A DNA stretch of 32,000 bases from Phycisphaera mikurensis NBRC 102666 (GCF_000284115.1 NC_017080.1:930001-962000); one strand, 5' to 3'. Shown: positions 11,768 through 31,845, counted from the first letter of the stretch. Notes: generated by a model from the letters alone, not told the origin. A program made the numbers and translations.

Positions 11768-11901
11768 TGCGGCGGCCGTCGCTCCTCCGACCGGGCGGAT
11801 CCGATCGGCGGGGACTCCCGTCTGAGGGCCCTTCTCCTGCCCCTCGGCCCTTCACCGCCGGGCGGATCTCGCCGCGACCGAGCTCCGATAGACTCCGGCC
11901 C

Positions 11902-12334: not shown

Positions 12335-12380
12335 CCGCGGATCGTCGGTCTTCTCCCGCGTTTCGGCTCGCGGTCCGCGG
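12335..12380. repeat. 46-bp palindromic element, copy D (one arm mismatch)
   Basis: CCGCGGATCG (12335-12344) and CGGTCCGCGG (12371-12380) are separated by 26 nt, the same geometry as copies A-C. It lies in the atpC-mrdA intergenic region. Confidence 0.55.
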
Positions 12381-12415
12381 GAATCGCCGCCCGCTCGCGT
12401 CGGTAGAGACTCCCC

Positions 12416-16084: not shown

Positions 16085-16138
16085 ATCGCCGGGGGCGACA
16101 ATGCACCCGGTGGCGGTCCCCGACCCCGCCGCTCCGAA

Positions 16139-16669: not shown

Positions 16670-16703
16670 GCCGCACGCTACGGAGGCCCCCACGGCCCGG
16701 CCA

Positions 16704-16751
16704 CCCGCGGACCGCGGCGGGTACACGCCGCCCGCGGCGACGGTCCGCGGG
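16704..16751. repeat. 46-bp palindromic element, copy B
   Basis: CCCGCGGACCG (16704-16714) and CGGTCCGCGGG (16741-16751) form an 11-bp stem with a 26-nt spacer. It lies between the fasciclin gene start and the DUF892 gene stop. Confidence 0.65.
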
Positions 16752-16838
16752 CCCGCGGCGCAGCACGACGCCGCGGACCCCGGGGGAGCCGCGGCGTGAG
16801 GAAGGCTCGGAGGCGGCGGGTCGCCCCACCGCCGGGCG

Positions 16839-17354
16839 TCAGTGCGCGGCCTGAGCGTTGACGCCGGTCTGGGCCGTCGCGAGCTCCTTGAGCTTCTCGT
16901 CGGCGGCGATGTGCTGCGAGAGCAGGTCGTCGAGCGTCTGCTCGAGGTTGTGCTTGCCCATCGCGCCCAGCTGGCAGCGGGTGCTGCCGTAGCCGGCCAT
17001 GAAGTAGTGGTGCGCCCGCTGGGCGTTGGCGATGAGGGCCGAGTCCAGGACGGCCGGGTCGCCCTTGGCGTCGAGCGTCTCGGAGGTCTCCTGCATGATG
17101 CCCTTGGCCGCGTGGCAGGTCACCCGCTCGACGTCGAAGCCGAGCCCCTCGAACAGCGTCTCGATCGTCTTGACGCGGGCCGAGGCGGCCGCGTGCTGCG
17201 TCTTGAAGAGGCTCTGGAGCTCGGCGTTGCTCGCCTTCTCCACCATCTTCTCGAGGGTGTCGTGGAAGCGGAACTCCGCGTCGTACAGGTCGGCGACCTG
17301 GTGGTGGACGAAGTCTTTGAGAGTGTCGTAACGGTCGGCGAAGATGAGTCCCAT
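16839..17354 (-). CDS. ferritin-like DUF892 (YciE/YciF family) protein
   Basis: 171 aa starting at MGLIFADRYDTLKDFVHHQVADLYDAE (ATG, complement of 17352-17354). The helical pattern with LYDAE...KMV...A.N..L...F..H and the later E...HY motifs is typical of the YciE/YciF stress-protein family. Confidence 0.75.
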   Translation of the reverse strand: MGLIFADRYDTLKDFVHHQVADLYDAEFRFHDTLEKMVEKASNAELQSLFKTQHAAASARVKTIETLFEGLGFDVERVTCHAAKGIMQETSETLDAKGDPAVLDSALIANAQRAHHYFMAGYGSTRCQLGAMGKHNLEQTLDDLLSQHIAADEKLKELATAQTGVNAQAAH

Positions 17355-17553
17355 GTTGGAATCCTTGGTTGGTGTTTCAGCCCGTACGACCGAAACGCTA
17401 GCGCCAGCCCGGCGGATTTCCACCCGCCAGTCGGCGAAAGCCCGGCGGTGCGGCGGCCGCCGGTTCCTCTCCCCGCGCGGCGGAACACGCGCCGCTTCGG
17501 GAGGCGGCCGCCGCGGACGCGGCCTCCCGGCCGGCCCGCGACCCGCCTCGCCG

Positions 17554-19113
17554 CTACCGCTCGTCGAGCTTCGCCGCCAGCCTCTCCTCCGCCGACATCT
17601 TCGTCTTCCCCCGGATCAGCAGCTTGATCGGCACCTCCGAGAAGGGCAGCTCCTCGCGGATGTTGTTCATCAGGTACCGCTGGTAGTTGTGATCGAACAG
17701 CTCCGGGTCGTTGACGAACAGCGCCAGCGTGGGCGGGTTCGTCGCCGGCATCGTCGCGTAGAAGAGACGCGGCTGCTTGCCCGCCCGGTTCGTGCCCGGC
17801 CCGCGCCTCTGGTAGACGGCCTCGAAGAAGCGGTTGAGCTCGCCCGTGCCGACGCGGTGGCTGCTCTGCTCGTGCAGGTTGTGGGCCAGGGCGACCACGT
17901 CGCGGAGCCCGGTGCCGTTCTTCGCCGAGATGAAGACGATCGGGGCGAAGTCCAGCCCGCGGAGCGCGTCTTCCAGGTAGGTGACGTACGCCTCCTGGTC
18001 CATCACCCGGTTGCCCTCCTTGTCGCGGCCGATCAGGTCCCACTTGTTGACCACGATCACGCAGGGCTTGTAGTGCTTCTGCACCTCCTGGCTGAGGATC
18101 TGGTCGACCTGGCTCACCGGCACGGTCGCGTCGAGCAGCAGCAGCACCACGTCGGCCCGGCGGACGCTCCGCAGCGAGCGGTGCTGGCTGTAGAACTCGA
18201 TGGAGTCGCCGAGGCTCTTGGTCTTCCGGACGCCGGCGGTGTCGATGGCCGTGAAGGCCACGGGGGGCTCCGCGGGATCGACGGCCTTCATCGTGACCTC
18301 CACGTCGATGGAGTCTCGCGTGGTGCCCGCCTTCTCGCTGACGATAACCCGCTGCTGGCCCGCGAGCGCGTTGAGCAGCGTGCTCTTCCCGGCGTTCCGC
18401 TTGCCGACGAGCGCGAGCTTCAGGCCGCTTCCCAGCGGGTCCCGCGGGCCCATGCCCGCGTCGGTCCGCTGCTTGCGGGCTTCCTTGGCCGCCTCCCGCA
18501 GCCGGGCCTCGAGCTCGTGGCGGTTGTGCCGCGTCGTCGCCGAGACGAAGACCGGCTCGCCGAAGCCCAGCTTCATCGCCTCCCAGCCCTCGGTCGCCTG
18601 GGTCGGCGCATCCATCTTGTTGGCCACCACGACGACGGGCTTGGCCGACCGGTTCGGCTGGCCCGGCTTGCCCCCTCCTGATCCGGCACCGCTCTCCCGA
18701 AGGACCTTCGCCGCCCGCTCGTCCAGCGGCGTCACGCCGTCGACCGCGTCGATGACGAACAGCACCGCGTCGCACTCGCCGAGGCCCTCGGCGATCTGCC
18801 GCTCCACCTCGCCGGCGAGATCGTCGCGGTCGACGATGCCGTAGCCGCCGGTGTCGACGATCTCCAGCGACAGCATCCCGCCGGAGCCGTCCTCCAGCGG
18901 GATCTGGGCCCCGGTCGAGAGCCGGTCCCGCGTCACGCCGGCGGTCGGGTCCACGATCGACACCCGCCGCCCCGCGAGCATGTTCATCAGGCTGGACTTG
19001 CCCACGTTGGGCCGCCCGACGATCGCGAATCGGATCGGATCGGCCCCCACCGGCAGCGGGAAGTCCGTCGTGTCGTCGTTCTCGTCGCGGTTGGGGGGGG
19101 GAGCGGGTTGCAT
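17554..19113 (-). CDS. der: ribosome-biogenesis GTPase Der (EngA)
   Basis: Two tandem GTPase domains (GRPNVGKSSLMN...DTGG...NKMD and GKRNAGKSTLLN...DTAG...NKWD) followed by a KH-like C-terminal domain. I chose the start at MQPAPPPNRD (complement of 19111-19113). An in-frame ATG at 19155 is an alternative. The rest of the 754-aa track ORF is low-complexity. Confidence 0.9.
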   Translation of the reverse strand: MQPAPPPNRDENDDTTDFPLPVGADPIRFAIVGRPNVGKSSLMNMLAGRRVSIVDPTAGVTRDRLSTGAQIPLEDGSGGMLSLEIVDTGGYGIVDRDDLAGEVERQIAEGLGECDAVLFVIDAVDGVTPLDERAAKVLRESGAGSGGGKPGQPNRSAKPVVVVANKMDAPTQATEGWEAMKLGFGEPVFVSATTRHNRHELEARLREAAKEARKQRTDAGMGPRDPLGSGLKLALVGKRNAGKSTLLNALAGQQRVIVSEKAGTTRDSIDVEVTMKAVDPAEPPVAFTAIDTAGVRKTKSLGDSIEFYSQHRSLRSVRRADVVLLLLDATVPVSQVDQILSQEVQKHYKPCVIVVNKWDLIGRDKEGNRVMDQEAYVTYLEDALRGLDFAPIVFISAKNGTGLRDVVALAHNLHEQSSHRVGTGELNRFFEAVYQRRGPGTNRAGKQPRLFYATMPATNPPTLALFVNDPELFDHNYQRYLMNNIREELPFSEVPIKLLIRGKTKMSAEERLAAKLDER

Positions 19114-19157
19114 GACGCGGAGCAGTATCGCGTGGGTGCGCGTCGGCTGCGCCATCC

Positions 19158-19300
19158 AAGAGACGAAGCGACGCAGCGGGGGGTGTCGTGCGGTGGGGCT
19201 GCGTCGCCCGCGAAGGTCGGGGCTGCGAGCTCCGGCATCGAAGTTGGCGATCCACGCCGCCTCGACCCTCGCGCGTCGCCCGGACGTCGCTTCGTCTCTT
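19158..19300. repeat. long-range inverted repeat / 143-nt potential stem-loop in the ugpC-der spacer
   Basis: AAGAGACGAAGCGACG (19158-19173) is the exact reverse complement of CGTCGCTTCGTCTCTT (19285-19300). An inner imperfect pairing links CGCGAAGGTCGGGG and CCTCGACCCTCGCG. Confidence 0.5.
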
Positions 19301-19340
19301 CCCGAACAGCGAGCGGCGCAGCCGCTCATGCCTTCCACCT

Positions 19341-20462
19341 TCAGACCGCGTCCCGCAGCGTCAGGTTCTTCCCGTACTCGCCGGTCTCGAAGAGGTGCAG
19401 CTTGTCGGGGTCCAGGAAGAGCTTCACGGCCGTGCCCTCCTCGATGACCTCCGCCTTCACGCGGGCGACCAGGCGGCCGCCGCCGGCAACCGAGACGAAC
19501 ATGTCCATCATGTTGCCCAGCGGCTCGACCACGTCCAGCTCGCCGTCGATGGCCATGTCCTCGCGGTTCGCCTCGGCCGTCGGGTGCAGCTCCAGCCCCT
19601 CGGGCCGGATGCCCAGCACGACCTCCTGGCCGACGTGCTGCTGAGCGACCTCGCCGTGGTGGCCGTCGAGCACCACGCGGCCGGCGTCGCTCTGGAAGAC
19701 CGCGCGGCCGTCCTCGGCGACGATCCGCCCGTCGATGAAGTTCATCGGCGGCGTGCCGAGGAAGGCCGCGACGAACCGGTTGACCGGCTGGCGGTACACG
19801 CCCAGCGGCGTGTCGCACTGCTGGATGTGCCCGCCGGACATGACGACCACGCGGTCGCCGAGGGTCATCGCCTCCTCCTGGTCGTGCGTCACGTAGATCG
19901 TGGTGGTCGACAGCCGCTTGTGGAGCCGCTTGAGCTCCGCCCGCGTCTCCACCCGCAGCTTCGCGTCGAGGTTCGAAAGCGGCTCATCGAAGAGGAAGAC
20001 CGAGGGGTCGCGGACGATCGCCCGGCCCAGGGCGACACGCTGCCGCTGGCCACCCGAGAGCGCCTTGGGCCGCCGCTCCAGCAGCTCGGTGATGCCGAGG
20101 ATCTTCGCCGCGTCCCGCACCCGCTTGTCGATCTCGACCTTCGGGAACTTCCGCAGCTTCAGCCCGAAGGCCATGTTCTTGTACACCGTCATGTGCGGGT
20201 ACAGGGCGTAGTTCTGGAACACCATCGCGATGTCGCGGTCCTTGGGGGCGACGTGGTTCACCACGCGGCCGCCGATGGAGATCGTGCCGCCGGTGATGTC
20301 TTCGAGGCCCGCGACCATCCGCAGCGTCGTGGACTTGCCGCAGCCCGAGGGCCCGACCAGCACGAGGAACTCGCCGTCGTTGATGTGGAGCGAGATGCCG
20401 CGGACCGCGGTCACGTCGCCCTCGTAGGTCTTCACCACGTCCTGGATCTGTACGTCTGCCAA
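19341..20462 (-). CDS. ugpC: ABC transporter ATP-binding protein, MalK/UgpC/MsmX family (sugar-type importer ATPase)
   Basis: Walker A GPSGCGKST, Q-loop, signature LSGGQRQRVALGRA, Walker B VFLFDEPLSNLD, and a C-terminal TOBE/regulatory domain. I put the start at TTG (complement of 20460-20462), giving M-ADVQIQDVVKTY like family members. The upstream ATG at 20558 is the alternative. No permease or binding-protein gene is adjacent. The symbol is tentative. Confidence 0.85.
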   Translation of the reverse strand: MADVQIQDVVKTYEGDVTAVRGISLHINDGEFLVLVGPSGCGKSTTLRMVAGLEDITGGTISIGGRVVNHVAPKDRDIAMVFQNYALYPHMTVYKNMAFGLKLRKFPKVEIDKRVRDAAKILGITELLERRPKALSGGQRQRVALGRAIVRDPSVFLFDEPLSNLDAKLRVETRAELKRLHKRLSTTTIYVTHDQEEAMTLGDRVVVMSGGHIQQCDTPLGVYRQPVNRFVAAFLGTPPMNFIDGRIVAEDGRAVFQSDAGRVVLDGHHGEVAQQHVGQEVVLGIRPEGLELHPTAEANREDMAIDGELDVVEPLGNMMDMFVSVAGGGRLVARVKAEVIEEGTAVKLFLDPDKLHLFETGEYGKNLTLRDAV

Positions 20463-20709: not shown

Positions 20710-21120
20710 TCAATCCGTTGCAAAGTACCGCTGCAGCAGCATGACCGCCGCCAGTCCGTCCCGCCGCGTCTTCTTCTGCTTGTGCGTCAGCCCCGACCGG
20801 CCCATCGCCTCGTCCGCTTCCAGCGAGCTCCGCCGCTCGTCCACCAGGTGCACCGGCACGCCGAACCGTTCCGCCGCCTCCGCCGCGAACGCCCGCGCCC
20901 GCCTCGCCGCCTTGCCCGCCGACCCGTCCATGTGCAGCGGCAGGCCCAGCACCAGCGCGTCGGGCGTCTCCCGCTCGACGATCCGCGCGAGCCGCGTCCA
21001 ACGCTCCGGCCCCGGCGGCGCCACGACCGCCGGCAGCGGCGAAGCGATCCCCGTCGCGTCGTCCCCCAGCGCCAGCCCCGTCCGCTTGTTGCCGAGGTCG
21101 ATGGCGAGGAAGCGCGGCAC
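20710..21120 (-). CDS. ruvX: Holliday-junction resolvase-like nuclease RuvX (YqgF)
   Basis: 136 aa from GTG (complement of 21118-21120): VPRFLAIDLGNKRTGLALGDD...LVLGLPLHMDGS...VHLVDERRSSLEA...QKKTRRDGLAAVMLLQRYF. The YqgF signature D-x-G-x-K-R-x-G is at the N-terminus. The longer 711-aa track ORF is a chimera with the antisense of the RHS gene. Confidence 0.88.
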   Translation of the reverse strand: MPRFLAIDLGNKRTGLALGDDATGIASPLPAVVAPPGPERWTRLARIVERETPDALVLGLPLHMDGSAGKAARRARAFAAEAAERFGVPVHLVDERRSSLEADEAMGRSGLTHKQKKTRRDGLAAVMLLQRYFATD

Positions 21121-21168
21121 CGCGGAGACGGTATCCGCGGCGTTGAAGGTCCATTCGAAAGGGTAGAG

Positions 21169-23313
21169 TTGCGACACCTTCTCCCGGCCATCCTCGCCCT
21201 CCGGCCGCTCGTGATCACCCACACCGACATCCGCCGCCACCGGCCCACGCTCTTGATCGGCCCGCGGGTGGGGGCCCAGGGCGAGCCCTTCCGCGCCACC
21301 TTCAGCATCACCCGCAGCACCGCGTCGCGAAACCACGACATGCTCAAGTTCCTCTTCGGGGTGGAAGAGGAAGGCACGTACAACGTCCTCACGCTCTCGC
21401 ACAAGGGCGGGAGCCCGAGCGCGCCTTCGGGCAGCCGGCTCGACGACGCCTCCGGCGTGGGCGTCGCCGGCACCCGCACCGCCGCCAACGCCGTCAGCAC
21501 CCCGAACCCCAGCGACCGGGTCTGGGTCCGCGTGGCCTCCGACGGCGCCGCCGTGACCGCCAAGATGCTCCTCGACAACACCGGCCCGCCCAGCGAGGCC
21601 GCCTGGTCCGGCGCCGGCGAGGCGTACCGCAGCACCGCCTTCCCGATGAACGGCGGGCGGGTGGGCTTCCGCTCTGCCTACGGCGTCGCCTTCGTCCGGC
21701 ACTTCACCCTCGAGACCGACCACGACAACGACGGTTCCTGGACCCGCGAGTACGACGCCCTCATCGACCACCCCGGCGGCCACGCCACGATCCGGTACGA
21801 GCACGACGCCGCGGGCAACCTCACCTTCGACGGCGTGTTCTCCTACGCCTACGACGCGGTCGCCGATCCAGGCGACCGAAGGCTGGCGCCTCCGAGGCTG
21901 AAGCCAGCTTCCTTGTCCATCCGGCTGGTCAGCGTCCGCAACGCCTACCGCGAGGCTGGTGCCAGCCAGAGCGTGCAGGAGGGCTCGGTCGTCACCGCCA
22001 TGGCCTACGACGGCCTGGGCCGGCGGACCACCCGAGCCGTCCAGAACAGCGGGAACCTCGACTTCACCCACCACGCCTACTTCGACGGCCAGCGGCAGGT
22101 CGAGGAACGCAACGGCTCGGACCTGGTGCTCCGTCAGCAGGTCTGGGGCCTGGACTACATCGACGAGCTGGTGAGCACTTCGCTGAACTTCGACCCCACC
22201 GACACCACCGAGAGCGTCTGCGAGCGGCACTTCTACGCCCTCCACGACAGCCAGTACAACATCCTGGGCATCGTCGCCGCCGGCGGCGCCCTGGTGGAGC
22301 GATACGAGTACACGCCCTACGGACAGAGGCAGGTCTACGGGAGTGGGTGGCTGCCATACGATCTCGATGGCAACGGGGTGGTGGATCAAGCAGACGCCGA
22401 CGTCGTAGACGCAGGGCGGTACGGGCCCGACGATTCGTCTTCCTACATCGCGGATGTATCGGGAGACGGTCAGGTCGACGACAACGACTACTACCCCGTC
22501 CTCTACAGCGGAGCCTACCCGTTCCTGGGGCTCCAGATCCTGCCGCAGAACGACCTGAAGGCGTACACACCGCGGCTGGGTAGCTTCGCCGGTCGTCTCG
22601 CCTCCGAAGGTGCCGGCAGCAGCTTGAACCCCTTCGGCCACCAGGGCCTCCACCACGACGAGGCCACCGGGCTCATCTACAACCGGGCACGCATGCTCCA
22701 CCCCACGCTGGGCAGGTTCGTGCAGAGAGATCCGCTGGGGTATGTGGATGGGGCCAATCAATATCTCTACCACCCAGCTCTTCATGGAGGAACTGATTGG
22801 ACAGGGACCCGGCGAGTTCCTCCATATTCGGTGCCTACTTACCAAGCGAGATCTACGGCGGAGGATGCTGGAAGCAATTCACTTCAGCCAGGTGAGTGGG
22901 GAGGTAATCGAGACGCAATCCGTCACTGCGTTCTGATGTGCGAGTTAGCGAAAGACTTCGGGCGTCAGGGTGCTATCGACTTCGGACATGCGTACGAGAC
23001 GGATAACGAGCCGACTCTGCCCGACGGAGCTCGAGGCGTTCAAGGATACGCAGACTATACAGCTTTTGTGCTACACGATCGGGCGATGGATCTACACAAC
23101 AATGAGGTGGGAGCTTCGATTGGCGAGGCTCTGAGTGACCTGCAAGACCTCGTTCCGGAATGCAGCCGAACTTGCGCAGACGCATGTGCCGATGCCTTGG
23201 ACAACGGAGCCCTGCTCGTAAATGTAGAAAACGGATATAAACTAGACTGGCATCCTGGTCAAGCTCCATGGGAACGTCCTCCGACGATTCCCGATGTTAA
23301 TGTGTTCCCCTAA
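21169..23313 (+). CDS. RHS/YD-repeat polymorphic toxin, copy 1 (jelly-roll-like N-domain, YD repeats, dockerin/EF-hand-like insert, RHS core end, unique C-terminal domain CT1)
   Basis: YD repeats are present (YEHDAAGNLTFDG, YAYDA, MAYDGLGRRTTR, YEYTPYGQ), and the core terminus is GLIYNRARMLHPTLGRFVQRDPLGYVDGANQYLY. After about 22740 GC drops sharply and the sequence is unrelated to copy 2. The start is uncertain: TTG 21169 (used), GTG 21211 or ATG 21340. The frame stays open upstream only because it is antisense to ruvX. Confidence 0.8.
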   Translation: MRHLLPAILALRPLVITHTDIRRHRPTLLIGPRVGAQGEPFRATFSITRSTASRNHDMLKFLFGVEEEGTYNVLTLSHKGGSPSAPSGSRLDDASGVGVAGTRTAANAVSTPNPSDRVWVRVASDGAAVTAKMLLDNTGPPSEAAWSGAGEAYRSTAFPMNGGRVGFRSAYGVAFVRHFTLETDHDNDGSWTREYDALIDHPGGHATIRYEHDAAGNLTFDGVFSYAYDAVADPGDRRLAPPRLKPASLSIRLVSVRNAYREAGASQSVQEGSVVTAMAYDGLGRRTTRAVQNSGNLDFTHHAYFDGQRQVEERNGSDLVLRQQVWGLDYIDELVSTSLNFDPTDTTESVCERHFYALHDSQYNILGIVAAGGALVERYEYTPYGQRQVYGSGWLPYDLDGNGVVDQADADVVDAGRYGPDDSSSYIADVSGDGQVDDNDYYPVLYSGAYPFLGLQILPQNDLKAYTPRLGSFAGRLASEGAGSSLNPFGHQGLHHDEATGLIYNRARMLHPTLGRFVQRDPLGYVDGANQYLYHPALHGGTDWTGTRRVPPYSVPTYQARSTAEDAGSNSLQPGEWGGNRDAIRHCVLMCELAKDFGRQGAIDFGHAYETDNEPTLPDGARGVQGYADYTAFVLHDRAMDLHNNEVGASIGEALSDLQDLVPECSRTCADACADALDNGALLVNVENGYKLDWHPGQAPWERPPTIPDVNVFP

Positions 23314-23389
23314 GAGGTCTTGTAAGTTCCGTGCAGGCGATTGGCCTAACGTAATCCTATGGCAGGATTCAAAAGTTTGGATGTAAGGC

Positions 23390-24001
23390 ATGATGTTTTT
23401 TAAAGGGGTCAGGGCAACGCTTGTACTTGCGGTTATATCTATCTGTGTTGCTGGAACAGCCTCGGTTTCCTGTTCCAATCATGGCGATCGCGCATCCGAG
23501 GCGAAGATTGATGTGACCACGAAGCGGGAAGATTGGAGCAGTTGGGCTCTACGCAGGGTTGTGATCGCGTCAGAGACCCCGGTTGACGAATCGGGCTCTG
23601 TCGGTTTCTCTATCGTGCAACCACGCAATTCTTTTGCACCTCAGGGCATAGGGATCTATCGTAGATTGAGCTGGGCGGAAAGCTACGAGAACCTCAGGAT
23701 TTTTGCAGCTATCAAGACTTACCGGGACTTGCGGTTGTCGCTCCATGTTGAAGGTGACCGAGATTCCGAGGGCGAGTATGGCAGCCTTGATTTTCGGATC
23801 CCTTTCCAGTGGGGATCAGCAGTGGTTGAAGTTAAGCGTGAGGAACGTTTAATCCTCGCTGAGTGCCAGGTCCCTTCTGATGTAGAATCCGTACTATTAT
23901 GGCTCCAGGTGGAAGACCCACAACCTGCAACATCGCCCAAACTAAACCAGAACGAGGGCGTTGACTTCGCCATATCCGGTCTAATCATCGTACTTGACTA
24001 A
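23390..24001 (+). CDS. secreted beta-rich protein, candidate cognate immunity for CT1
   Basis: 203 aa in AT-richer DNA contiguous with CT1, starting 76 nt after the RHS1 stop. It has an N-terminal signal peptide (MMFFKGVRATLVLAVISICVAGTASVSC). I recognise no family. The immunity role is inferred from position only. Confidence 0.5.
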   Translation: MMFFKGVRATLVLAVISICVAGTASVSCSNHGDRASEAKIDVTTKREDWSSWALRRVVIASETPVDESGSVGFSIVQPRNSFAPQGIGIYRRLSWAESYENLRIFAAIKTYRDLRLSLHVEGDRDSEGEYGSLDFRIPFQWGSAVVEVKREERLILAECQVPSDVESVLLWLQVEDPQPATSPKLNQNEGVDFAISGLIIVLD

Positions 24002-24147
24002 GAAGCTGTTTCAAAACTCCCCATGATCATCCGCCGGTGGCAGATGGTGAGGCAGGCGAGGTCGTGCATGCCCTGAAAGTGGCTTCCGGTCCGCTCGTAG
24101 CAGACCTTCAACCGGCGGTCGTTCCCGAACCATGCCAATGCCCGCTC
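23998..24147 (-). pseudogene. 3'-terminal remnant of an IS5-family (IS427/IS1031-like) DDE transposase gene
   Basis: The minus-strand translation PERALAWFGNDRRLKVCYERTGSHFQGMHDLACLTICHRRMIMGSFETAS* matches the conserved C-terminus of IS5-family transposases (ER..aW....RRL...YE......f..lA...i..RR). Everything upstream is replaced by the GAAGCAAGGGG array. A possible IS end, GAAGCTGTTTCAAAAC, follows a CTAA at 23998-24001. Confidence 0.6.
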
Positions 24148-24149
24148 GG

Positions 24150-24241
24150 GAAGCAAGGGGTCAGGGAAGCAAGGGGAAGCAAGGGGTCAGGGAAGCAAGG
24201 GGGAAGCAAGGGGAAGCAAGGGGTCAAGCCCCTTGCAGAGG
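24150..24241 (+). repeat. iterated half-hairpin array plus terminal complete hairpin (left end of RAYT element 1)
   Basis: Six head-to-tail copies of GAAGCAAGGGG, with or without TCAG, at 10-17 bp periodicity. The last copy is completed to GGAAGCAAGGGG-TCAAG-CCCCTTGCAGAGG (24212-24241). That hairpin has an 8-bp stem at 24216-24223 / 24229-24236 and a 5-nt loop. Confidence 0.85.
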
Positions 24242-24306
24242 TGCTATGGTGCCGTCGCCGAGTCGCCTCCCGCTCCCCCGCTCTCTCGCACCCTCAACCG
24301 CTCCCC

Positions 24307-25398
24307 ATGGCCCGCTCCCTCCGCCACCAGATCCTGCCTGATGCCACCTGCGTGGTTCATGTTGTGTCGAAGATCTCGCGGTCGCTTCACTTGCTGGTGC
24401 CCGATGAGGATCGTGCCGGCGCCGGCGCCGGTGCCGTTGGCGACGCGGCCGAGCACCCCGACCTCCGCAAGGAGCTGCTGCTGCAGCGGCTGGAGACGCT
24501 GGCGGAGCAGACCTCGATCTCGGTGTGCGGGTTTGCGGTGATGGGCAACCACGTCCACCTGATCCTGCGGCGGGACAAGGAGGAGGCCGCGGCGTGGCCG
24601 GCGGCGGAGGTGGTGGGGCGGTGGCTTGCGTTGCACCCCAAGCGCAACCGGGCGCGGCAGCCGGTGGAGACGCCGGAGGAGGACGTGGCGGCGATGGTGG
24701 CGGACGAGGGACTGGTGGAGACGCTGCGTGCGAAGCTGTCGAGTGTCTCGCAATTCATGAAGGACCTCAAGCAGCGGACCGCGGAGGCGGTGAACAAGCT
24801 GGAGGGCCGCGGCGGGCGGCTCTGGGACGGGACGTTCAAGAGCAAGCTGATCGAGGACCAGGAGCAGCTGGTGGCGACGATGGTGTACGTGGACCTCAAC
24901 CCCTTCGCGGCGGGGGTGTGCGAGACGCCCGAAGAGGGCCGCCACACCTCGCTGGCGGGGCGGCTGGGGCGGGACGAGCCGGCGGGGGAGGTGAGCAAGC
25001 CCGCAGGATCCGCGGACCGCGACCGGGAGGAGGCCTCGGAGGCCGGCGGTCCGCGGGTTGGTCTGCGGTTGCCACGGCGGAGGTCCAGCGGGGCCTGGCT
25101 GCGGCCGCTGGACGAGTCGGCCAAGCGGGCGCGGGAGCGTGGGCAGCGGCGGCACCCGCGAGGGCGGGCGGGGCTCGAAGCGGAGGCCGCGGGAACGGTG
25201 AGCCCGGGGCTGTCGCTGCGGGTCTACCTGCGGATCCTCGACGCGGTCAGCCGCAAGCTGCGGGCGGGCAAGAAACGCCTTGCGGCGGGCATGGCAAGCG
25301 TCTTCGAGCGGCTGAACCTGGACGCCGACGCGGTGGTCGGGCGGGTGCTGGCGATGGCGCAGCGGGACGGGCTGGCGGTGGCGGGCCGGGGCAGCTGA
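24307..25398 (+). CDS. REP-associated tyrosine transposase-like HUH protein (Y1 transposase / IS200-like, COG1943), copy 1
   Basis: 363 aa from MARSLRHQILPD. Family blocks are present: VVHVVSKISRSLHLLVPDEDR, the HUH motif in AVMGNHVHLILRR, GRLWDGTFKSKLIEDQEQL, and the catalytic-Tyr block MVYVDLNPFAAGV. A C-terminal extension of about 150 aa is Arg/Ala-rich. Confidence 0.8.
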   Translation: MARSLRHQILPDATCVVHVVSKISRSLHLLVPDEDRAGAGAGAVGDAAEHPDLRKELLLQRLETLAEQTSISVCGFAVMGNHVHLILRRDKEEAAAWPAAEVVGRWLALHPKRNRARQPVETPEEDVAAMVADEGLVETLRAKLSSVSQFMKDLKQRTAEAVNKLEGRGGRLWDGTFKSKLIEDQEQLVATMVYVDLNPFAAGVCETPEEGRHTSLAGRLGRDEPAGEVSKPAGSADRDREEASEAGGPRVGLRLPRRRSSGAWLRPLDESAKRARERGQRRHPRGRAGLEAEAAGTVSPGLSLRVYLRILDAVSRKLRAGKKRLAAGMASVFERLNLDADAVVGRVLAMAQRDGLAVAGRGS

Positions 25399-25818
25399 AC
25401 CGAGCTCGCCGGGGCCTGGCTACCTCGCAGGAGGCGTTGCTTCTTCCGAACGGATCCGCCGGGCTCGCCGGGGCCTACCCGGGCCTGCCCGGGCCTGCCC
25501 GGGCATCGCCGGGCGAGGGCTGTTGCGGTGACTGCGCCAGCCGCTTTGCAACGCAAGGCGGGCTCTTGTCCGGATCAGCGTCGATCCCCGAGGCGGCGTC
25601 GCCGGGCTCCGGCCCGCTCAGCGTTGCGAAGCGGCTGACGCTGTCAGCCCCGCCGGGATCTCGGTGGGCCTGCCTGGGAAGCTGCTCGGATCGTGGGGTG
25701 GCACACCGGAGATGCACGGCCTCGTGGTGATGGCGACGGATCGATCGGTGAACGCCGGGTTCTCGTTTCCGAGCCCGCGGCTCATCCGCTCGTCGGCCGG
25801 TTCCTTACCCTCTCCCTC

Positions 25819-26154
25819 ATGCCGTCCCGCCTTCCAGCAGCCCTGCTGCTCGTTCTCCCGCTGCTGCTCCCGGCCTGCGTTGCGCCCATGTACGTGAACA
25901 TCCCCTCGGAGGGCGGCATCGCGGCGAGCGATCCGAACAGCTTCAACGTGCGGGACGTGGTGGCCGACTCGATCGCGGCGGCGGTGGAGCGGGAGCCGCT
26001 GGAGGGCGTCTACGAGATCTTGCTGCCCGAGGGCACCACGCAGGGGCAGCATGGGGTGAGGCCCCTTGCGTTTGTGTCGCCGAGGTCGATGGCGAGGAAG
26101 CGCGGCACCGCGGAGACGGTATCCGCGGCGTTGAAGGTCCATTCGAAAGGGTAG
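25819..26154 (+). CDS. lipoprotein gene fragment fused across the module junction (probably truncated / chimeric ORF)
   Basis: MPSRLPAALLLVLPLLLPAC (signal peptide with lipobox) is followed by about 60 plausible residues. From about 26055 the ORF reads through the junction and across the antisense of the ruvX start fragment (..GVRPLAFVSPRSMARKRGTAETVSAALKVHSKG*). Confidence 0.35.
   Translation: MPSRLPAALLLVLPLLLPACVAPMYVNIPSEGGIAASDPNSFNVRDVVADSIAAAVEREPLEGVYEILLPEGTTQGQHGVRPLAFVSPRSMARKRGTAETVSAALKVHSKG
26079..26108 (-). pseudogene. ruvX 5' fragment (codons 1-10), identical to 21091-21120
   Basis: GCCGAGGTCGATGGCGAGGAAGCGCGGCAC is identical to the start of intact ruvX, and identity continues through the 48-bp spacer into RHS copy 2. 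To the left the sequence is unrelated and begins with CCCCTTGC (26062-26069). Confidence 0.85.
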
Positions 26155-26156
26155 AG

Positions 26157-28331
26157 TTGCGACACCTTCTCCCGGCCATCCTCGCCCTCCGGCCGCTCGT
26201 GATCACCCACACCGACATCCGCCGCCACCGGCCCACGCTGCTCATCGGCCCGCGGGTGGGGGCCCAGGGCCAGCCCTTCCGCGCGACCTTCAGCTTCACC
26301 CGCAGCACCGCCTCGCGGAACCACGACATGCTCAAGTTCCTCTTCGGGGTGGAAGAGGAAGGCACGTACAACGTGCTCGCATTCTCCCACAAAGGCGGGA
26401 GCCCGTGGGCGCCTTCAGGCAGCCGGCTCGAGGACGCCTCCGGCATCAGCGTCGCCGGCACCCGCACCGCCGCCCACGCCGTCAGCACCCCCAACCCCAG
26501 CGACCGGGTCTGGGTCCGCGTGGCCTCCGACGGCGCCGCCGTGACCGCCAAGATGCTCCTCGACAACACCGGCCCGCCCAGCGAGGCCGCCTGGTCCGGC
26601 GCCGGCGAGGCGTACCGCAGCACCGCCTTCCCGATGAACGGCGGGCGGGTGGGCTTCCGCTCTGCCTACGGCGTCGCCTTCGTCCGGCACTTCACCCTCG
26701 AGACCGACCACGACAACGACGGTTCCTGGACCCGCGAGTACGACGCCCTCATCGACCACCCCGGCGGCCACGCCACGATCCGGTACGAGCACGACGCCGC
26801 GGGCAACCTCACCTTCGACGGCGTGTTCTCCTACGCCTACGACGCGTGGAACCGGCTGGTCAGCGTCCGCAACGCCTACCGCGAGGCTGGTGCCGGCCAG
26901 AGCGTGCAGGAGGGCTCGGTCGTCACCGCCATGGCCTACGACGGCCTGGGCCGGCGGACCACCCGAGCCGTCCAGAACAGCGGGAACCTCGACTTCACCC
27001 ACCACGCCTACTTCGACGGCCAGCGGCAGGTCGAGGAACGCAACGGCTCGGACCTGGTGCTCCGTCAGCAGGTCTGGGGCCTGGACTACATCGACGAGCT
27101 GGTGAGCACTTCGCTGAACTTCGACCCCACCGACACCACCGAGAGCGTCTGCGAGCGGCACTTCTACGCCCTCCACGACAGCCAGTACAACATCCTGGGC
27201 ATCGTCGCCGCCGGCGGAGCCCTCGTGGAGCGGTACGAGTACACGCCGTATGGGCAGCGGCAGGTCTACGGGAGCGGAACCCTCAAGCTCGACGTCAACG
27301 GCGACGGGTCGCAGGACCAGGACGACACTGCGTTGGTGCAGGCGCTGGTGAACGATCCAACCCACCCCGACCACCACCTCGCCGACATTTACAGCGACGG
27401 GCAGATCAACCAGAACGACGTGAGCGCGATGGGCGAGATCTACGCCTTCGCCTACTACGACGGCCCCGAGGCCAACCACCTCGACCGCAGCGACCTCAAG
27501 CGTCTGACGCCCCGCCTCGGCACCACAAGGGGTCCCGCGTACGCAGCCTGGCTCACCGCTCCGGTCTACACCACGCTCAACCCCTTCGGCCACCAGGGCC
27601 TCCACCACGACGAGGCCACCGGGCTCATCTACAACCGGGCACGCATGCTCCACCCCACGCTGGGGAGGTTCGTGCAGAGAGACCCGCTGGGCAATCGCGT
27701 CTCATGGAGATCAGTGAGGCCGCGGTTTACCCGGAATCGAGAGGATGGAAGGACGATGATGGTTGTCTCTCGAGCTGAGGACATTGCTTACGTCCTGTAT
27801 CCACAACTACAATATTTTGCTGGGATGTCGCTGTACGAGTATGCGGCGAGTTCTCCGAGAAGCCTTGTTGATCCCACGGGCCTAGTACCGTGGCCCGCGA
27901 TCGTGGTGGGCACATGTTTAAATGAATCGACTGATCGATGCCAGATAATCTGGCACGATTACGATAATCCGAAGGATGGGGGCGATTTTGAGCTGCTGCG
28001 CCCCGGCGAAAGAAGCGGATCGAAGGATCGGTGCGACTACGTTTATCTGAATGGCGAGTGGTATAAGAATCGTTCTCGCTTGGTGTACGTAGCGGATTCT
28101 CCACTCGACCCATATGTGAAGTACAAGAAAACGCGGGGAGGGAAATATCTAAAGTCACCTTTATCTCCTGTAAGTCGCGCTCCGGATGGTCCTTGGTATC
28201 CAGGCAGAACTGGCAAGAAGCCCTCTAAGACTATCTGCGAAAAGTATTGCGAGTGCAATCTCTTGAGCGACCCCGCTCATCAAGGACCAGATTGTGATGA
28301 CGACTGCGTGAAGAGATGTGAGGATCTCTGA
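26157..28331 (+). CDS. RHS/YD-repeat polymorphic toxin, copy 2 (same body as copy 1, different dockerin-like insert, unique C-terminal domain CT2)
   Basis: About 95-100% identical to copy 1 over 26157 to about 27200 and again over 27579-27691 (..NPFGHQGLHHDEATGLIYNRARMLHPTLGRFVQRDPLG). It then enters AT-richer unique sequence containing a second core-end motif, GMSLYEYAASSPRSLVDPTGL, and a Cys-rich tail. Start options are TTG 26157, GTG 26199 and ATG 26328. Confidence 0.8.
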   Translation: MRHLLPAILALRPLVITHTDIRRHRPTLLIGPRVGAQGQPFRATFSFTRSTASRNHDMLKFLFGVEEEGTYNVLAFSHKGGSPWAPSGSRLEDASGISVAGTRTAAHAVSTPNPSDRVWVRVASDGAAVTAKMLLDNTGPPSEAAWSGAGEAYRSTAFPMNGGRVGFRSAYGVAFVRHFTLETDHDNDGSWTREYDALIDHPGGHATIRYEHDAAGNLTFDGVFSYAYDAWNRLVSVRNAYREAGAGQSVQEGSVVTAMAYDGLGRRTTRAVQNSGNLDFTHHAYFDGQRQVEERNGSDLVLRQQVWGLDYIDELVSTSLNFDPTDTTESVCERHFYALHDSQYNILGIVAAGGALVERYEYTPYGQRQVYGSGTLKLDVNGDGSQDQDDTALVQALVNDPTHPDHHLADIYSDGQINQNDVSAMGEIYAFAYYDGPEANHLDRSDLKRLTPRLGTTRGPAYAAWLTAPVYTTLNPFGHQGLHHDEATGLIYNRARMLHPTLGRFVQRDPLGNRVSWRSVRPRFTRNREDGRTMMVVSRAEDIAYVLYPQLQYFAGMSLYEYAASSPRSLVDPTGLVPWPAIVVGTCLNESTDRCQIIWHDYDNPKDGGDFELLRPGERSGSKDRCDYVYLNGEWYKNRSRLVYVADSPLDPYVKYKKTRGGKYLKSPLSPVSRAPDGPWYPGRTGKKPSKTICEKYCECNLLSDPAHQGPDCDDDCVKRCEDL

Positions 28332-28765
28332 TGCGGCCCGAACCTCAATCTTTAGCAGTTTCATTTTGGATGATGGTCGGCTGTCTCGCGGTTGTTATTC
28401 CATCAGCAATTTATAGCGGCCGAGAAGAACCTTTTTACGGCGTGCAGCCTGCGTGGGTATTCTTTTCTCAGATCGGTTCAGCAACCGGCGTCTTATTCGC
28501 GTCGCTCATCTCGGTCGTGTGCATTCCCTGGAGGCGCGTGTATGGAAACTATCGAGTACTTATCGCGTCAGTCGCTCTATGCATATCGAATCTCCTTGTA
28601 TCTGCATTAGGATGCTTCGTCGCTGCGACGTTTGTTGAGGACGTGAGGAACTATATTGCTATATTAGAGGCTCAAGATCTTACGTCGACCACCACGGAGA
28701 AGAAAGCTCATGGAGATCCGGGAGGGGAGAAACTCCCGCTTGTAGATATTGAGCGATCTCAGTAA
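28331..28765 (+). CDS. small polytopic membrane protein, candidate cognate immunity for CT2
   Basis: Its ATG overlaps the RHS2 stop (TGATG, 28329-28333). It is 144 aa with 3-4 hydrophobic helices (LAVSFWMMVGCLAVVIPSAIY, WVFFSQIGSATGVLFASLISVVCI, VLIASVALCISNLLVSALGCFVAATFV). Its low GC is contiguous with CT2. Confidence 0.6.
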   Translation: MRPEPQSLAVSFWMMVGCLAVVIPSAIYSGREEPFYGVQPAWVFFSQIGSATGVLFASLISVVCIPWRRVYGNYRVLIASVALCISNLLVSALGCFVAATFVEDVRNYIAILEAQDLTSTTTEKKAHGDPGGEKLPLVDIERSQ

Positions 28766-28775
28766 GCGAGCGTCA

Positions 28776-28874
28776 ATGCACAACCATACTTTCGACTTTG
28801 GCCTCCAATGGAGCCCCCGCCTCCTCCTCGGCGCCCTCACACTGCTTGCGCTCCCACCCGCGTCCGCCCAACTA
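28776..28874 (+). pseudogene. 5' fragment of a secreted-protein gene cut off by RAYT element 2
   Basis: MHNHTFDFGLQWSPRLLLGALTLLALPPASAQ looks like a signal peptide ending in an ASA-Q cleavage site. The reading frame then runs straight into the GAAGCAAGGGG array, which translates as nonsense (GSKGSRKQGVKEGEARGQ). Confidence 0.35.
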
Positions 28875-28980
28875 GGAAGCAAGGGGTCAAGGAAGCAAGG
28901 GGTCAAGGAAGGGGAAGCAAGGGGTCAGGAAGCAAGGCGGAAGCAAGGGCGGAAGCAAGGGGTCAAGCCCCTTGCAAGGG
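28875..28980 (+). repeat. iterated half-hairpin array plus terminal complete hairpin (left end of RAYT element 2)
   Basis: Six or seven copies of GGAAGCAAGG(G/C)G, with or without TCAA/TCAG, some degenerate (GGAAGGGG, GAAGCAAGGCG, GAAGCAAGGGC). The array ends in GGAAGCAAGGGG-TCAAG-CCCCTTGCAAGGG (28951-28980). Confidence 0.85.
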
Positions 28981-29045
28981 TGCTATGATGCTGTCGCTGC
29001 GTCGCCTCCCGCTCCCCCGCTCTCTCGCACCCTCAACCGCTCCCC

Positions 29046-30131
29046 ATGGCCCGCTCTCTCCGCCACCAGATCCTGCCTGACGCCACCTGCGTCGTCCATG
29101 TTGTGTCGAAGATCTCGCGGTCGCTTCACTTGCTGGTGCCCGATGAGGATCGTGCCGGCGCCGGTGCCGTTGGCGACGCGGCCGAGCACCCCGACCTCCG
29201 CAAGGAGCTGCTGATGCAGCGGATGCAGACCCTGGCGGAGCAGACCTCGATCTCGGTATGCGGGTTCGCGGTGATGGACAACCACGTCCACCTGATCCTG
29301 CGGCGGGACAAGGAGGAGGCCGCGGCGTGGCCGGCGGCGGAGGTGGTGGGGCGGTGGCTTGCGTTGCACCCCAAGCGGAATCGGGCGCGGCAGCCGGTGG
29401 AGACGCCGGAGGAGGATGTGGCGGCGATGGTGGCGGACGCGGGCCTGGTGGAGGCGCTGCGTGGGAAGCTCTCGAGCGTCTCGCAGTTTATGAAAGACCT
29501 CAAGCAGCGGACGGCCGAGGCGGTGAACAAGCTGGAAGGCCGCGGCGGGCGGCTCTGGGACGGGACGTTCAAGAGCAAGCTGATCGAGGACCAGGAGCAG
29601 CTGGTGGCGACGATGGTGTACGTGGACCTCAACCCCTTCGCGGCGGGGGTGTGCGAGACGCCCGAAGAGGGCCGCCACACCTCGCTGGCGGGGCGGCTGG
29701 GGCGGGACGAGCCGGCGGGGGAGGTGAGCAAGCCCGCAGGATCCGCGGACCGCGACCGGGAGGAGGCCTCGGAGGCCGGCGGTCCGCGGGTTGGTCTGCG
29801 GTTGCCACGGCGGAGGTCCAGCGGGGCCTGGCTGCGGCCGCTGGACGAGTCGGCCCAGCGGGCGCGGAAGCGTGGGCAACGGCGGCACCCGCGAGGGCGG
29901 GCGGGGCTGAAAGCGGAGGCCGCGGGAACGGTGAGCCCGGGGCTGTCGCTGCAGATCTACCTGCGGATCCTCGACGCGGTCAGCCGCAAGCTGCGGGCGG
30001 GCAAGAAACGCCTTGCGGCGGGCATGGCAAGCGTCTTCGAGCGGCTGAACCTGGACGCCGACGCGGTGGTCGGGCGGGTGCTGGCGATGGCGCAGCGGGA
30101 CGGGCTGGCGGTGGCGGGCCGGGGCAGCTGA
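29046..30131 (+). CDS. REP-associated tyrosine transposase-like HUH protein, copy 2
   Basis: 361 aa. It is near-identical to copy 1 except for a 6-nt indel (AGAGAGAV vs AGAGAV) and scattered substitutions. The HUH block (MDNHVHLILRR) and Tyr block (VYVDLNPFAAGV) are intact. Confidence 0.8.
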   Translation: MARSLRHQILPDATCVVHVVSKISRSLHLLVPDEDRAGAGAVGDAAEHPDLRKELLMQRMQTLAEQTSISVCGFAVMDNHVHLILRRDKEEAAAWPAAEVVGRWLALHPKRNRARQPVETPEEDVAAMVADAGLVEALRGKLSSVSQFMKDLKQRTAEAVNKLEGRGGRLWDGTFKSKLIEDQEQLVATMVYVDLNPFAAGVCETPEEGRHTSLAGRLGRDEPAGEVSKPAGSADRDREEASEAGGPRVGLRLPRRRSSGAWLRPLDESAQRARKRGQRRHPRGRAGLKAEAAGTVSPGLSLQIYLRILDAVSRKLRAGKKRLAAGMASVFERLNLDADAVVGRVLAMAQRDGLAVAGRGS

Positions 30132-30247
30132 ACCCGCAAGCGGCAGCGGCGGTCCCGCTGATCTACGACCGATCGCATCGCTGCCGGACCATCAAGCGTC
30201 ACCCGGAGCCCGATTCAGCGTTGGCGGAGAAGGTGGCAGCCACCAAG

Positions 30248-30330
30248 GGAAGCAAGGGGTCAAGCCCCTTGCAGAGGTGCTATAATGCCGTCGCCGAGTA
30301 GGAAGCAAGGGGTCAAGCCCCTTGCAGAGG
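30248..30330 (+). repeat. two orphan copies of the RAYT-element hairpin (no transposase gene)
   Basis: The 30-mer GGAAGCAAGGGGTCAAGCCCCTTGCAGAGG occurs at 30248-30277 and 30301-30330, and both copies are perfect. The first is followed by 21 nt of the RAYT leader (TGCTATAATGCCGTCGCCGAG). The second abuts the diverged ruvX fragment. Confidence 0.85.
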
Positions 30331-30333
30331 CCC

Positions 30334-30471
30334 GCGGGCCAGCCGCCGCCACCGCTCCGGACCCGGCGACGCGGCAGGTGCCGGCGGCGGGGAGGTGGTC
30401 CCGGGCGCGTCGTTGCCGAGCGCAAGGCCGTTCCGCCGGCCGCCGAGGTCGATCGCGAGGCAACGCGGCAC
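30334..30471 (-). pseudogene. diverged ruvX 5' fragment (codons 1-46)
   Basis: The minus-strand translation is VPRCLAIDLGGRRNGLALGNDAPGTTSPPPAPAASPGPERWRRLAR, against intact RuvX VPRFLAIDLGNKRTGLALGDDATGIASPLPAVVAPPGPERWTRLAR. My hand alignment gives 33/46 aa and about 103/138 nt. Homology stops at the hairpin copy ending at 30330. Confidence 0.75.
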
Positions 30472-30564
30472 GCGTGCGGGCGGAACGGGGCCGCCCGGGG
30501 ATCCTCTAGACTCCCGCAACCCGGGCCGGGCCGAGCCGGGCGCTGCCACCCCCACCGATCTTTT

Positions 30565-31845
30565 ATGCCTGAGAACTCCCCGCCGACCGCTCGCCTCGAC
30601 CTGCCCGAAGGGCCCATCGACCTGCCGATCGTTGTTGGCACCGCCGACGAGAAGTCGGTCGACATCTCGAAGCTCCGGGCCCAAACCGGCTACATCACGC
30701 TCGACGAGGGGTACCGCAACACGGGCAGCGTCAAGAGCGACATCACCTTCATCGACGGCGAGAAGGGCATCCTCCGCTACCGCGGCTATCCCATCGAGGA
30801 GGTGTGCGAGAACAGCTCCTTCATTGAGACGGCGCTGCTGCTGATCCACGGCGAGAAGCCGAGCAAGGAGTCGCTCTCGAGGTTCAGCGAGCGGCTGACG
30901 CACCACCAGATGATCCACGAGTCGGTGCGGCAGATGTTCGACGGCTTCCCGCCGACGGCGCACCCGATGGCGGTGCTCTCGTCGATGATCAACACGATCT
31001 CCTGCTTCCAACCGGCGATCATGAACATCGACGACGAGGAGGAGTTCGACGACACCGCGGCGATGCTGATCAGCAAGGTGCGGACGGTCGCGGCGGCCGC
31101 TTACAAGACCCAGATGGGGCATCCCATCATGTACCCGGATCCGAAGCTCACGTACTGCGAGAACTTCCTCCACATGATGTTCTCGCTCCCGCTGGGGCGG
31201 ATCGAGCCCGATCCGGACGTCGTGGAGGCGCTCAACCTCATCTTCATCCTGCACGCGGACCACGAACAGAACTGCTCGACGGCGACGGTGCGGATGGTCG
31301 GCTCCTCGGGGGCGAACCTCTTCGCCAGCTGCGCCGCCGGCGTCTGTGCCCTCTGGGGCCCGCTGCACGGCGGCGCGAACGTCGCGGTCATGAACCAGCT
31401 CGAGGAGATCCACAACAGCGACATCACGACGCGGAAGTACATCGACAACCTGAAGGCGACCAAGGGCAAGCTCTTCGGCTTCGGCCACGGCGTCTACAAG
31501 AGCTACGACCCGCGTGCGATGGTCCTCAAGAAGTCCGCCGACAAGGTGCTCGCGAAGCTCGGGGTCGACGATCCGCTGCTCGCGATCGCTCGCGAGCTGG
31601 AGGAGACGGCGCTCAACGACGAGTACTTCGTCAGCCGGAACCTCTATCCCAACGTCGACTTCTATTCCGGGATCCTCATGCGGGCGATGGGCATCCCCAC
31701 GAACATGTTCACGGTGATGTTCGCGATCGGCCGCATGCCCGGCTGGATCGCTCAGTGGTGGGAGGTCAACCAGCAGAAAAGCCGGATCTACCGGCCGCGG
31801 CAGGTCTACACCGGCGCCCGGGAGCGAGCCTGGAACGCCGGCTGA
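30565..31845 (+). CDS. gltA: citrate synthase (type II, hexameric-type length)
   Basis: 426 aa from MPENSPPTARLDLPEGPIDLPIVVG. Citrate synthase blocks are present: ILRYRGYPIEEL-like, LILHADHEQNCSTATVR, WGPLHGGANVAV, GFGHGVYKSYDPRA, and NVDFYSGI. The 81 residues upstream in the track ORF are not used. Confidence 0.93.
   Translation: MPENSPPTARLDLPEGPIDLPIVVGTADEKSVDISKLRAQTGYITLDEGYRNTGSVKSDITFIDGEKGILRYRGYPIEEVCENSSFIETALLLIHGEKPSKESLSRFSERLTHHQMIHESVRQMFDGFPPTAHPMAVLSSMINTISCFQPAIMNIDDEEEFDDTAAMLISKVRTVAAAAYKTQMGHPIMYPDPKLTYCENFLHMMFSLPLGRIEPDPDVVEALNLIFILHADHEQNCSTATVRMVGSSGANLFASCAAGVCALWGPLHGGANVAVMNQLEEIHNSDITTRKYIDNLKATKGKLFGFGHGVYKSYDPRAMVLKKSADKVLAKLGVDDPLLAIARELEETALNDEYFVSRNLYPNVDFYSGILMRAMGIPTNMFTVMFAIGRMPGWIAQWWEVNQQKSRIYRPRQVYTGARERAWNAG

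Follow-up and report, generated by a model that had tools for sequence, protein, structure and literature searches.

Displacement of older gene ends by incoming DNA has been proposed for Rhs loci, where a C-terminal tip is displaced via an intermediate carrying a fragment of the core (Jackson et al. 2009, PMC2935791), and for type VI secretion system (T6SS) effector/immunity modules, which are displaced sequentially through illegitimate recombination facilitated by homology (Kirchberger et al. 2017, PMC5361080). SXT/R391 elements in prfC (PMC2791158) are islands that occupy a conserved gene's 5' end while the gene stays functional, and the REP/RAYT and IS200/IS605 systems (PMC2817692, PMC5581495; IS, insertion sequence) combine an HUH/Y1 protein with hairpin repeats upstream and downstream. 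Here we compare with these systems an island between ruvX and gltA of Phycisphaera mikurensis NBRC 102666. The window analysed is a stretch of 32,000 nucleotides (nt) (GCF_000284115.1 NC_017080.1:930001-962000), and all positions are counted from its first letter. From left to right, the locus consists of der and a MalK-like ABC ATPase gene (both on the minus strand), ruvX (minus strand), two tandem modules, a displaced piece of the ruvX 5' end (hereafter copy C), a 93-nt intergenic region and gltA. Each module contains a short RHS-core toxin gene with a low-GC tip, an open reading frame (ORF) for a putative immunity protein, and an IS200/RAYT-like gene with hairpin repeats; a remnant of an IS5 element and a fragment of a lipoprotein gene are also present in the island.

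Comparison with relatives showed that the site was once empty. RuvX homologues at 81-89% identity come from metagenome assemblies, and these relatives are labelled L007-L014. In five of them (L007, L008, L009, L010 and L014) gltA and ruvX are divergent neighbours with 102-282 bp between them, and L010 matches both flanks of the P. mikurensis locus (GGDEF-Dabb-gltA on one side and ruvX-ABC-der on the other). P. mikurensis has about 9.2 kb of extra DNA between the two genes. In a sixth lineage (L011/L012) the gene lying upstream of ruvX is a hydrolase-like one instead. A scan of a genome collection with RuvX returned distant relatives only (at most 48% identity), with no gltA nearby, and was uninformative for the empty-site comparison. 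The intergenic regions of the relatives share the motif ACTCTAGAGGATC, of which a copy, GTCTAGAGGATC, is found in the P. mikurensis region 30472-30564. This region is collinear with that of the relatives, and copy C runs straight into it. Because of the empty sites and the shared intergenic motif, the insertion is real and lineage-specific, and copy C is the marker of the original ruvX start position. The island, at approximately 21169-30330, is a lineage-specific accessory insertion in a conserved divergent ruvX-gltA pair. An earlier note on this window, made from the sequence alone, had proposed an ancestral divergent arrangement of the two genes and the entry of an RHS/RAYT block at about codon 46 of ruvX, with a displaced 5' end left beside gltA; the empty sites and the native surroundings of copy C bear out both proposals.

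The intact gene (copy A) lies at 20710-21120 on the minus strand, where the earlier note had placed it, and encodes 136 amino acids (aa) from a GTG start. The RuvX profile PF03652 matched it with an E-value of 8.5e-38 and 130.2 bits (cut-off 29.2), covering profile positions 2-133 of 134, and the protein is 83-88% identical to the products of the ruvX genes that adjoin gltA and the ABC gene in L007-L014, which supports both its family membership and its orthologous position. The GTG at 21120 aligns with an ATG or GTG start in all orthologues; the public annotation starts the gene elsewhere, at a GTG at 21177, giving a 155-aa form. A 48-nt spacer (21121-21168) separates the ruvX start from the RHS frame of module 1. 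It can be aligned to the native intergenic region only at the motif AACTCTAC; the genus motif ACTCTAC is kept upstream of copy A at a similar distance from the start.

Copy C (30334-30471, minus strand) corresponds to ruvX codons 1-46 and aligns without gaps to 20983-21120 of the live gene (BLAST E-value of 2.5e-20 in a within-window search), so that copies A and C are direct repeats of the first 138 nt of ruvX that flank the island. The identity is 75% (103/138 nt and 33/46 aa), exactly as counted by hand in the earlier note. The note also had the homology ending exactly at a hairpin element; a hairpin copy is located there, and the homology stops 3-4 nt from a partial unit of that repeat. 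No remnant of ruvX nt 139-411 was found beyond copy C, and on this ground a second, decayed ruvX paralogue was excluded as its source. Copy B (26079-26156, minus strand) comprises ruvX nt 1-30 (26079-26108) and an exact repeat of the 48-nt spacer (26109-26156), and is 100% identical to 21091-21168. Its identity to the left module runs on to 21251 and its similarity to 22346, and copy B thus amounts to the leftmost 78 bp of a 1.26-kb repeat that both modules contain (21087-22346 = 26075-27277, 92.5% identical). The reported exact copy of codons 1-10 with 48 bp upstream therefore exists, and all elements listed in the earlier note, among them the three ruvX start fragments said to mark the island boundaries, lie at the coordinates given there, but copy B opens the inter-module repeat and is no independent boundary mark. 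Its complete identity falls within a gene-conversion-like mosaic.

This mosaic extends over the RHS genes, where blocks of 100% and approximately 91% identity alternate. The unrelated tips of the two genes lie between core ends that are 98% identical and RAYT blocks that are 95.7% identical, which is the classic RHS cassette pattern, and the alternation indicates gene conversion or cassette exchange between the modules. A simple tandem duplication of one module was ruled out by the unrelated tips and immunity ORFs and by a 630-nt segment unique to module 1 (25402-26031, plus strand). In these respects the locus is like the Rhs orphan-tip loci (PMC2935791), which likewise have a conserved core, a variable tip and an immunity gene in tandem modules, older pieces pushed aside with an anchor fragment, IS-like genes downstream and mosaic identity between modules. 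Unlike in those loci, what has been displaced in P. mikurensis is 5' ends of the neighbouring housekeeping gene ruvX and not rhs 3' tips, both RHS genes keep the full shared 5' region, and the proteins are short and of a Planctomycetota type, with no T6SS, PAAR or VgrG delivery genes seen within 10 kb on either side. The likeness to T6SS module displacement (PMC5361080) consists of one homologous anchor combined with one illegitimate joint, and of an array that grows by addition and retains ancestral pieces downstream. The differences are that the island's anchor was probably provided by ruvX or by the 5' region of the RHS genes, that the mechanism is inferred, and that no link to competence or T6SS was seen.

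These parallels suggest that the island may have entered by recombinational displacement, as proposed for Rhs tips and T6SS effector modules, a reading to which we give about an even chance. Incoming DNA, linear or circular, would have carried a piece of ruvX that acted as the homology anchor, and its other end, at the hairpin repeat, would have been joined illegitimately inside ruvX. The resident ruvX 5' end would have been pushed aside and not replaced. The second module could have been added likewise or by unequal exchange, its far end being joined at ruvX nt 30 via microhomology, which would have produced copy B. At this joint the ruvX side and the hairpin tail (GCCCCGTCCGCTTGT / GCCCCTTGCGTTTGT) agree at 12 of 15 positions, a match reached by 70 of 2000 shuffles. 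Gene conversion would later have homogenised patches of both RHS 5' regions, and copy B may persist because its 78 bp are the sole upstream sequence available to RHS2. We favour displacement because it requires no enzyme that is absent from the island, explains the anchor fragment in each older piece and matches published models.

Several observations weigh against displacement. The recombination steps are reconstructed from their end product, and no relative with RHS next to ruvX was found that could represent a donor arrangement or an intermediate. Microhomology is absent from the copy C junction. There, the partial hairpin unit ends exactly 6 nt past the stem, as would be expected of a specific cut more than of random breakage, and a hairpin copy abuts both displaced ruvX fragments. 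The homology between copies A and C halts at the start codon, a limit not predicted for a random anchor. Finally, the synonymous distance of 0.69 between copies A and C would fit either an old event or two different alleles, and 46 codons cannot decide between them.

The last point leads to the origin of the live 5' end, which the earlier note had suggested was possibly brought in by the island. If so, copy C would be the resident 5' end, and nt 1-138 of copy A (perhaps more), together with the spacer, would have come with the island from another Phycisphaera species. The distance of 0.69 is as large as that between species (46 codons), the upstream regions of the two copies are unalignable although A retains ACTCTAC, and copy C is free of indels; all of this would fit a foreign end. 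The whole ruvX allele is also incongruent with its flanks: its synonymous distance to L007 is 1.28, compared with 0.28-0.31 for abc and gltA, and it is closest to ruvX of L010. However, this excess spans the whole gene and is also found between relatives that lack the island, which suggests allele exchange at ruvX within the genus, rather than a breakpoint at nt 138. Copy A is 74-82% identical to its orthologues across nt 1-138 and 74-81% across the remainder, with no step at nt 138, in a comparison of low power, as the relatives are nearly equidistant and the whole allele is out of step with its flanks. Such equality of the two parts is what the earlier note had named as a refutation of its insertion model. 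In neighbour-joining trees of the 138 nt, copies A and C tended to group together, weakly (45-47% bootstrap, with all groupings below 70%), and they have several derived sites in common. We regard an island-borne, foreign replacement end as rather unlikely, although possible.

Derived changes, polarised with six outgroups, further separated the two copies. Copy C has acquired 10 non-synonymous and 4 synonymous changes, near the neutral site ratio of approximately 2.3, and copy A has acquired 1 non-synonymous and 4 synonymous changes; the synonymous counts on the two branches are thus equal. A further 16 differences are at sites that vary among the relatives and can be assigned to neither branch. 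The replacements in copy C include T14N, D20N, I25T, L29P and P35S, all at positions conserved in close orthologues, with T14, D20 and L29 conserved in all orthologues listed. Copy A is kept by selection and copy C is a freely evolving pseudogene fragment. The C branch looks neutral along its whole resolvable length and not partly constrained, contrary to what a foreign end would leave. An initial reading of partial constraint on copy C, taken from the pairwise ratio of non-synonymous to synonymous distances (dN/dS) of 0.29 between A and C, was dropped after outgroup polarising. The simplest reading of these changes is one duplication of ruvX nt 1-138 followed by decay of copy C, and the duplication would be old because of the A-C synonymous distance.

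The hairpins and the RAYT-like genes required separate consideration. RAYT1 (24307-25398, plus strand, 363 aa) and RAYT2 (29046-30131, plus strand, 361 aa; 95.7% nucleotide identity to RAYT1) both encode IS200-like HUH/Y1 proteins in which the motifs NHVHLIL (HUH) and YVDLNP (Y1) can be read. Profile matches were partial and below the curated cut-offs: Y1_Tnp (PF01797) at 20.9 and 22.9 bits (cut-off 23; E-value of 4e-4 for RAYT1) and REP_Tyr_transpos NF047646 at 46 bits (cut-off 80). A 21-nt hairpin, GCAAGGGGTCAAGCCCCTTGC, which folds into an 8-bp stem with a 5-nt loop, occurs five times against 0 expected, always on the plus strand and always within the island; no copy was found outside the island in the approximately 73 kb of the P. 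mikurensis genome searched. Its units flank the RAYT genes in direct, not inverted, orientation, with copies upstream at 24216 and 28955 and downstream at 26049 (degenerate), 30252 and 30305. The degenerate unit forms the right end of module 1 (26032-26069, plus strand; 31/39 columns match 30235-30272, with 3 mismatches to the 21-nt hairpin). A full 53-nt unit (30247-30299) and the partial unit (30300-30330, 100% identical to 24212-24241) form the right end of the island (30247-30330, plus strand).

The arrangement is like that of REP/RAYT and IS200/IS605 systems in its HUH/Y1 protein with hairpins on both sides and in the presence of paralogues in the same genome with their own hairpin type. 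It differs from these systems in having two 95.7%-identical copies within 5 kb, hairpins that are direct and confined to the island, and a protein of approximately 360 aa with a long C-terminal extension that scores below both curated cut-offs.

The same features allow a different account of the junctions, in which the RAYT enzyme would have cut at its hairpin end and at a surrogate site within a donor ruvX and pasted the block (hairpin, RHS, spacer and ruvX nt 1-138) into the corresponding site of a resident ruvX, so that the element would bring its own replacement gene start. The position of a hairpin copy 4-10 nt from both displaced fragments, the single orientation and island-confined distribution of the five hairpins, the sharp end of the partial unit 6 nt past its stem and the retention of the HUH and Y motifs in both RAYT1 and RAYT2 all fit such a reaction. 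The two target junctions, which read …CGACGAT and …GCTTGTT up to the joint, are unlike one another, the island's left end lacks a hairpin, and the homology of the RAYT1 and RAYT2 blocks ends 3 nt past the stop codon, which leaves the downstream hairpins outside any single conserved element. P. mikurensis has four diverged RAYT paralogues, and the paralogue and the closest homologue, a foreign one, whose contexts were examined are solitary between housekeeping genes. RAYTs in general are viewed as single-copy, domesticated genes (PMC5581495). Related RHS genes were located at 80 metagenome loci, not one of them adjacent to ruvX, and 79 of these loci have no RAYT nearby. The one that does, a point in favour of RAYT catalysis, is an unrelated contig (L031, 9002-13014), in which an RHS gene (740 aa) is followed by an IS30-like fragment and a RAYT-like gene of 327 aa, the same order as here. 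Because of the solitary paralogues and this single case, we conclude that RAYT is no regular partner of these RHS genes, and we consider RAYT catalysis of the junctions unlikely. The broader proposal, that the island is driven by the RAYT-like enzyme and its hairpin, which by cuts at the hairpin and at a surrogate ruvX site would pick up the adjoining ruvX start and carry it, together with the toxin modules, into the same site of another host, would seem improbable too.

An SXT/prfC-type integrase island at the ruvX 5' end, its integrase since lost, would match the layout of SXT/R391 (PMC2791158), but those elements rely on a tyrosine integrase, with attP and attB almost identical, and the P. 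mikurensis island holds toxin modules and IS-like genes only, with no tyrosine or serine integrase (as the earlier note had remarked), excisionase or transfer gene among its ORFs or called genes, and its boundaries share a diverged 138-nt repeat at 75% in place of a short identical core, with no conserved core common to the A, B and C junctions, which makes this origin very improbable. An assembly artefact arising from the repeated RHS and RAYT segments could be suspected since a Logan short-read contig breaks at the hairpin repeat, but is extremely unlikely: the gene order is the same in two assemblies of the strain, a contig of more than 1 Mb and JACHEL010000007 (GCA_014207395.1), the junction of hairpin, copy C and gltA is reproduced base for base on a separate Logan short-read contig, and the modules, which differ in tips, immunity ORFs and the 630-nt segment, are neither collapsed nor expanded copies.

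Taken as a whole, the island belongs to a known class of toxin arrays, although its side effect on a neighbouring gene is unusual, and it is a fairly ordinary example of toxin-island growth. With five empty sites, it is a well-resolved case of the build-up of an RHS toxin array in Planctomycetota, where such loci have barely been described. It indicates that, as an array grows, an adjoining and probably essential housekeeping gene can have its start duplicated and displaced while staying active, with no integrase involved. The fragments, through their decay, provide a rough clock, according to which the first insertion is old and the toxin tips still look foreign, in agreement with long-lived arrays whose tips are exchanged. 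Should the hairpin/RAYT pair make the junctions after all, RAYT-like genes would have a cargo-moving role, and if the RAYT-like enzyme were the engine of the island, this would amount to an integrase-free, single-strand route to site-specific island insertion.

The RHS genes themselves have a common plan. RHS1 (21169-23313, plus strand) has a short RHS core and a DUF6973 tip (22741-23313, GC 54%, E-value of 3.6e-11), and RHS2 (26157-28331, plus strand) has the same core and an unrelated tip (27693-28331, GC 51%), for which the profile search returned no family. The TIGR03696 profile (Rhs_assc_core, cut-off 32.5) matched with 48.7 and 49.4 bits, respectively, and the core-end motif RFVQRDPLG, of the PxxxxDPxG type, precedes both tips. 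As for shell-forming YD/RHS repeats, the profiles YD_repeat_2x (17-21 bits) and RHS_repeat gave single, weak matches. The proteins, of approximately 660-720 aa, are far shorter than the 1261-position RHS_core model and match only its end. The relatives of their RHS core are Planctomycetota proteins of 400-590 aa (best 49% identity over most of the query), and their N-terminal domain is common only to other short Planctomycetota RHS proteins; the homologue search returned no paralogues from the P. mikurensis genome. Both tips stand out in composition, with a GC content of 51-54% and a third-codon-position GC content (GC3) near 50%, compared with 69-74% and more than 90% elsewhere. The tips taken together with the immunity ORFs have a GC content of 50-54%. 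The ORFs in question, at 23390-24001 (plus strand, 203 aa, GC 51%, with a signal-peptide-like N-terminus) and 28331-28765 (plus strand, 144 aa, GC 50%, membrane-like), are putative immunity genes, judging by position behind the tips and by composition; a family search with the first gave no match.

The start of RHS1 is uncertain, at the annotated TTG at 21169 or at an ATG at 21340. The coding signal of the frame (GC3 95%) begins at 21169, flush with the spacer and 48 nt from the divergent ruvX start. RHS homologues align from residue 14 of the annotated RHS1, and some of them (P0170, P0168) have 55-118 extra N-terminal residues; the RHS genes may be truncated at their 5' ends. The RHS promoter may overlap the ruvX start (regions 21121-21340 and 26109-26328); a sigma-70 promoter scan around the 48-nt spacer found nothing, with a model that may not suit the host phylum.

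Around the island, gltA (30565-31845, plus strand) was confirmed as a citrate synthase gene by Pfam (E-value of 2.7e-135) and by 92-96% aa identity to the relatives. An RNA-targeted insertion found no backing, the window holding one unrelated tRNA-Arg gene at 12300-12381 only and zero Rfam matches. The other side of ruvX, toward the ABC gene, is variable in the relatives: at 10969-14531, L007 carries pieces of IS66 and a gene (36% identical) of the RAYT-like type, L008 has genes for CsgG, an Amt-histidine kinase and a response regulator at 10681-15961, and L009 has kinase and ECF-sigma genes at 11153-19430. Both flanks of ruvX therefore seem to act as insertion hot spots in this group.

Some smaller features of the island deserve mention. 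Upstream of each RAYT gene, the left hairpin half and its 5' flank, GGAAGCAAGGGG, are repeated 5-7 times with a spacing of 10-16 nt (24148-24222 and 28874-28949) before a single complete hairpin, the arrays with their hairpin units spanning 24148-24263 and 28874-29002 (both plus strand). No description of such half-site arrays was found in the literature on REP/RAYT systems. Another hairpin, CATGGGGTGACACCCAC, is present three times upstream of one P. mikurensis RAYT paralogue, whose neighbours are argJ and an aldolase gene (L015, 9788-9916), and the degenerate hairpin at 26049 has CATGGGGTGA in common with that hairpin. Between immunity ORF 1 and the first hairpin array, which cuts it off, lies the C-terminal remnant of an IS5-family transposase (23998-24156, minus strand; NF033580 positions 222-257 of 258, E-value of 8.5e-6). 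Its last 36 or so residues are left, marking a further, older insertion inside module 1.

The 630-nt segment unique to module 1 (GC3 92%) has no counterpart in module 2 except for a 16-nt match, and a family search with it gave no match. It holds the beginning of a lipoprotein-like ORF (25819-26154, plus strand) with an LLPAC lipobox signal, which reads through the degenerate hairpin and, in antisense, through copy B. This ORF is absent from the relatives and from module 2, matched zero families and probably represents the 5' portion of a gene that was imported from another location. Within the RHS cores, which are otherwise 98-100% identical, a stretch of approximately 375 nt (22260-22635 and 27191-27578) is only 50-60% identical. 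It encodes aspartate-rich, dockerin-like repeats, with a weak Dockerin_1 match in RHS2, and forms a second variable cassette upstream of the tip. RHS1 also has an in-frame insertion of 62 nt (21859-21920) in place of TGGAA, which breaks the repeat motif YDAWNRLV that is intact in RHS2. It folds as two hairpins (-15.5 kcal/mol, z -2.7), and 26 nt of it are identical at 24/26 positions to the reverse complement of der at 18583-18608, at a distance of 3.2 kb; in appearance the insertion resembles templated filler DNA or a very small mobile insert.

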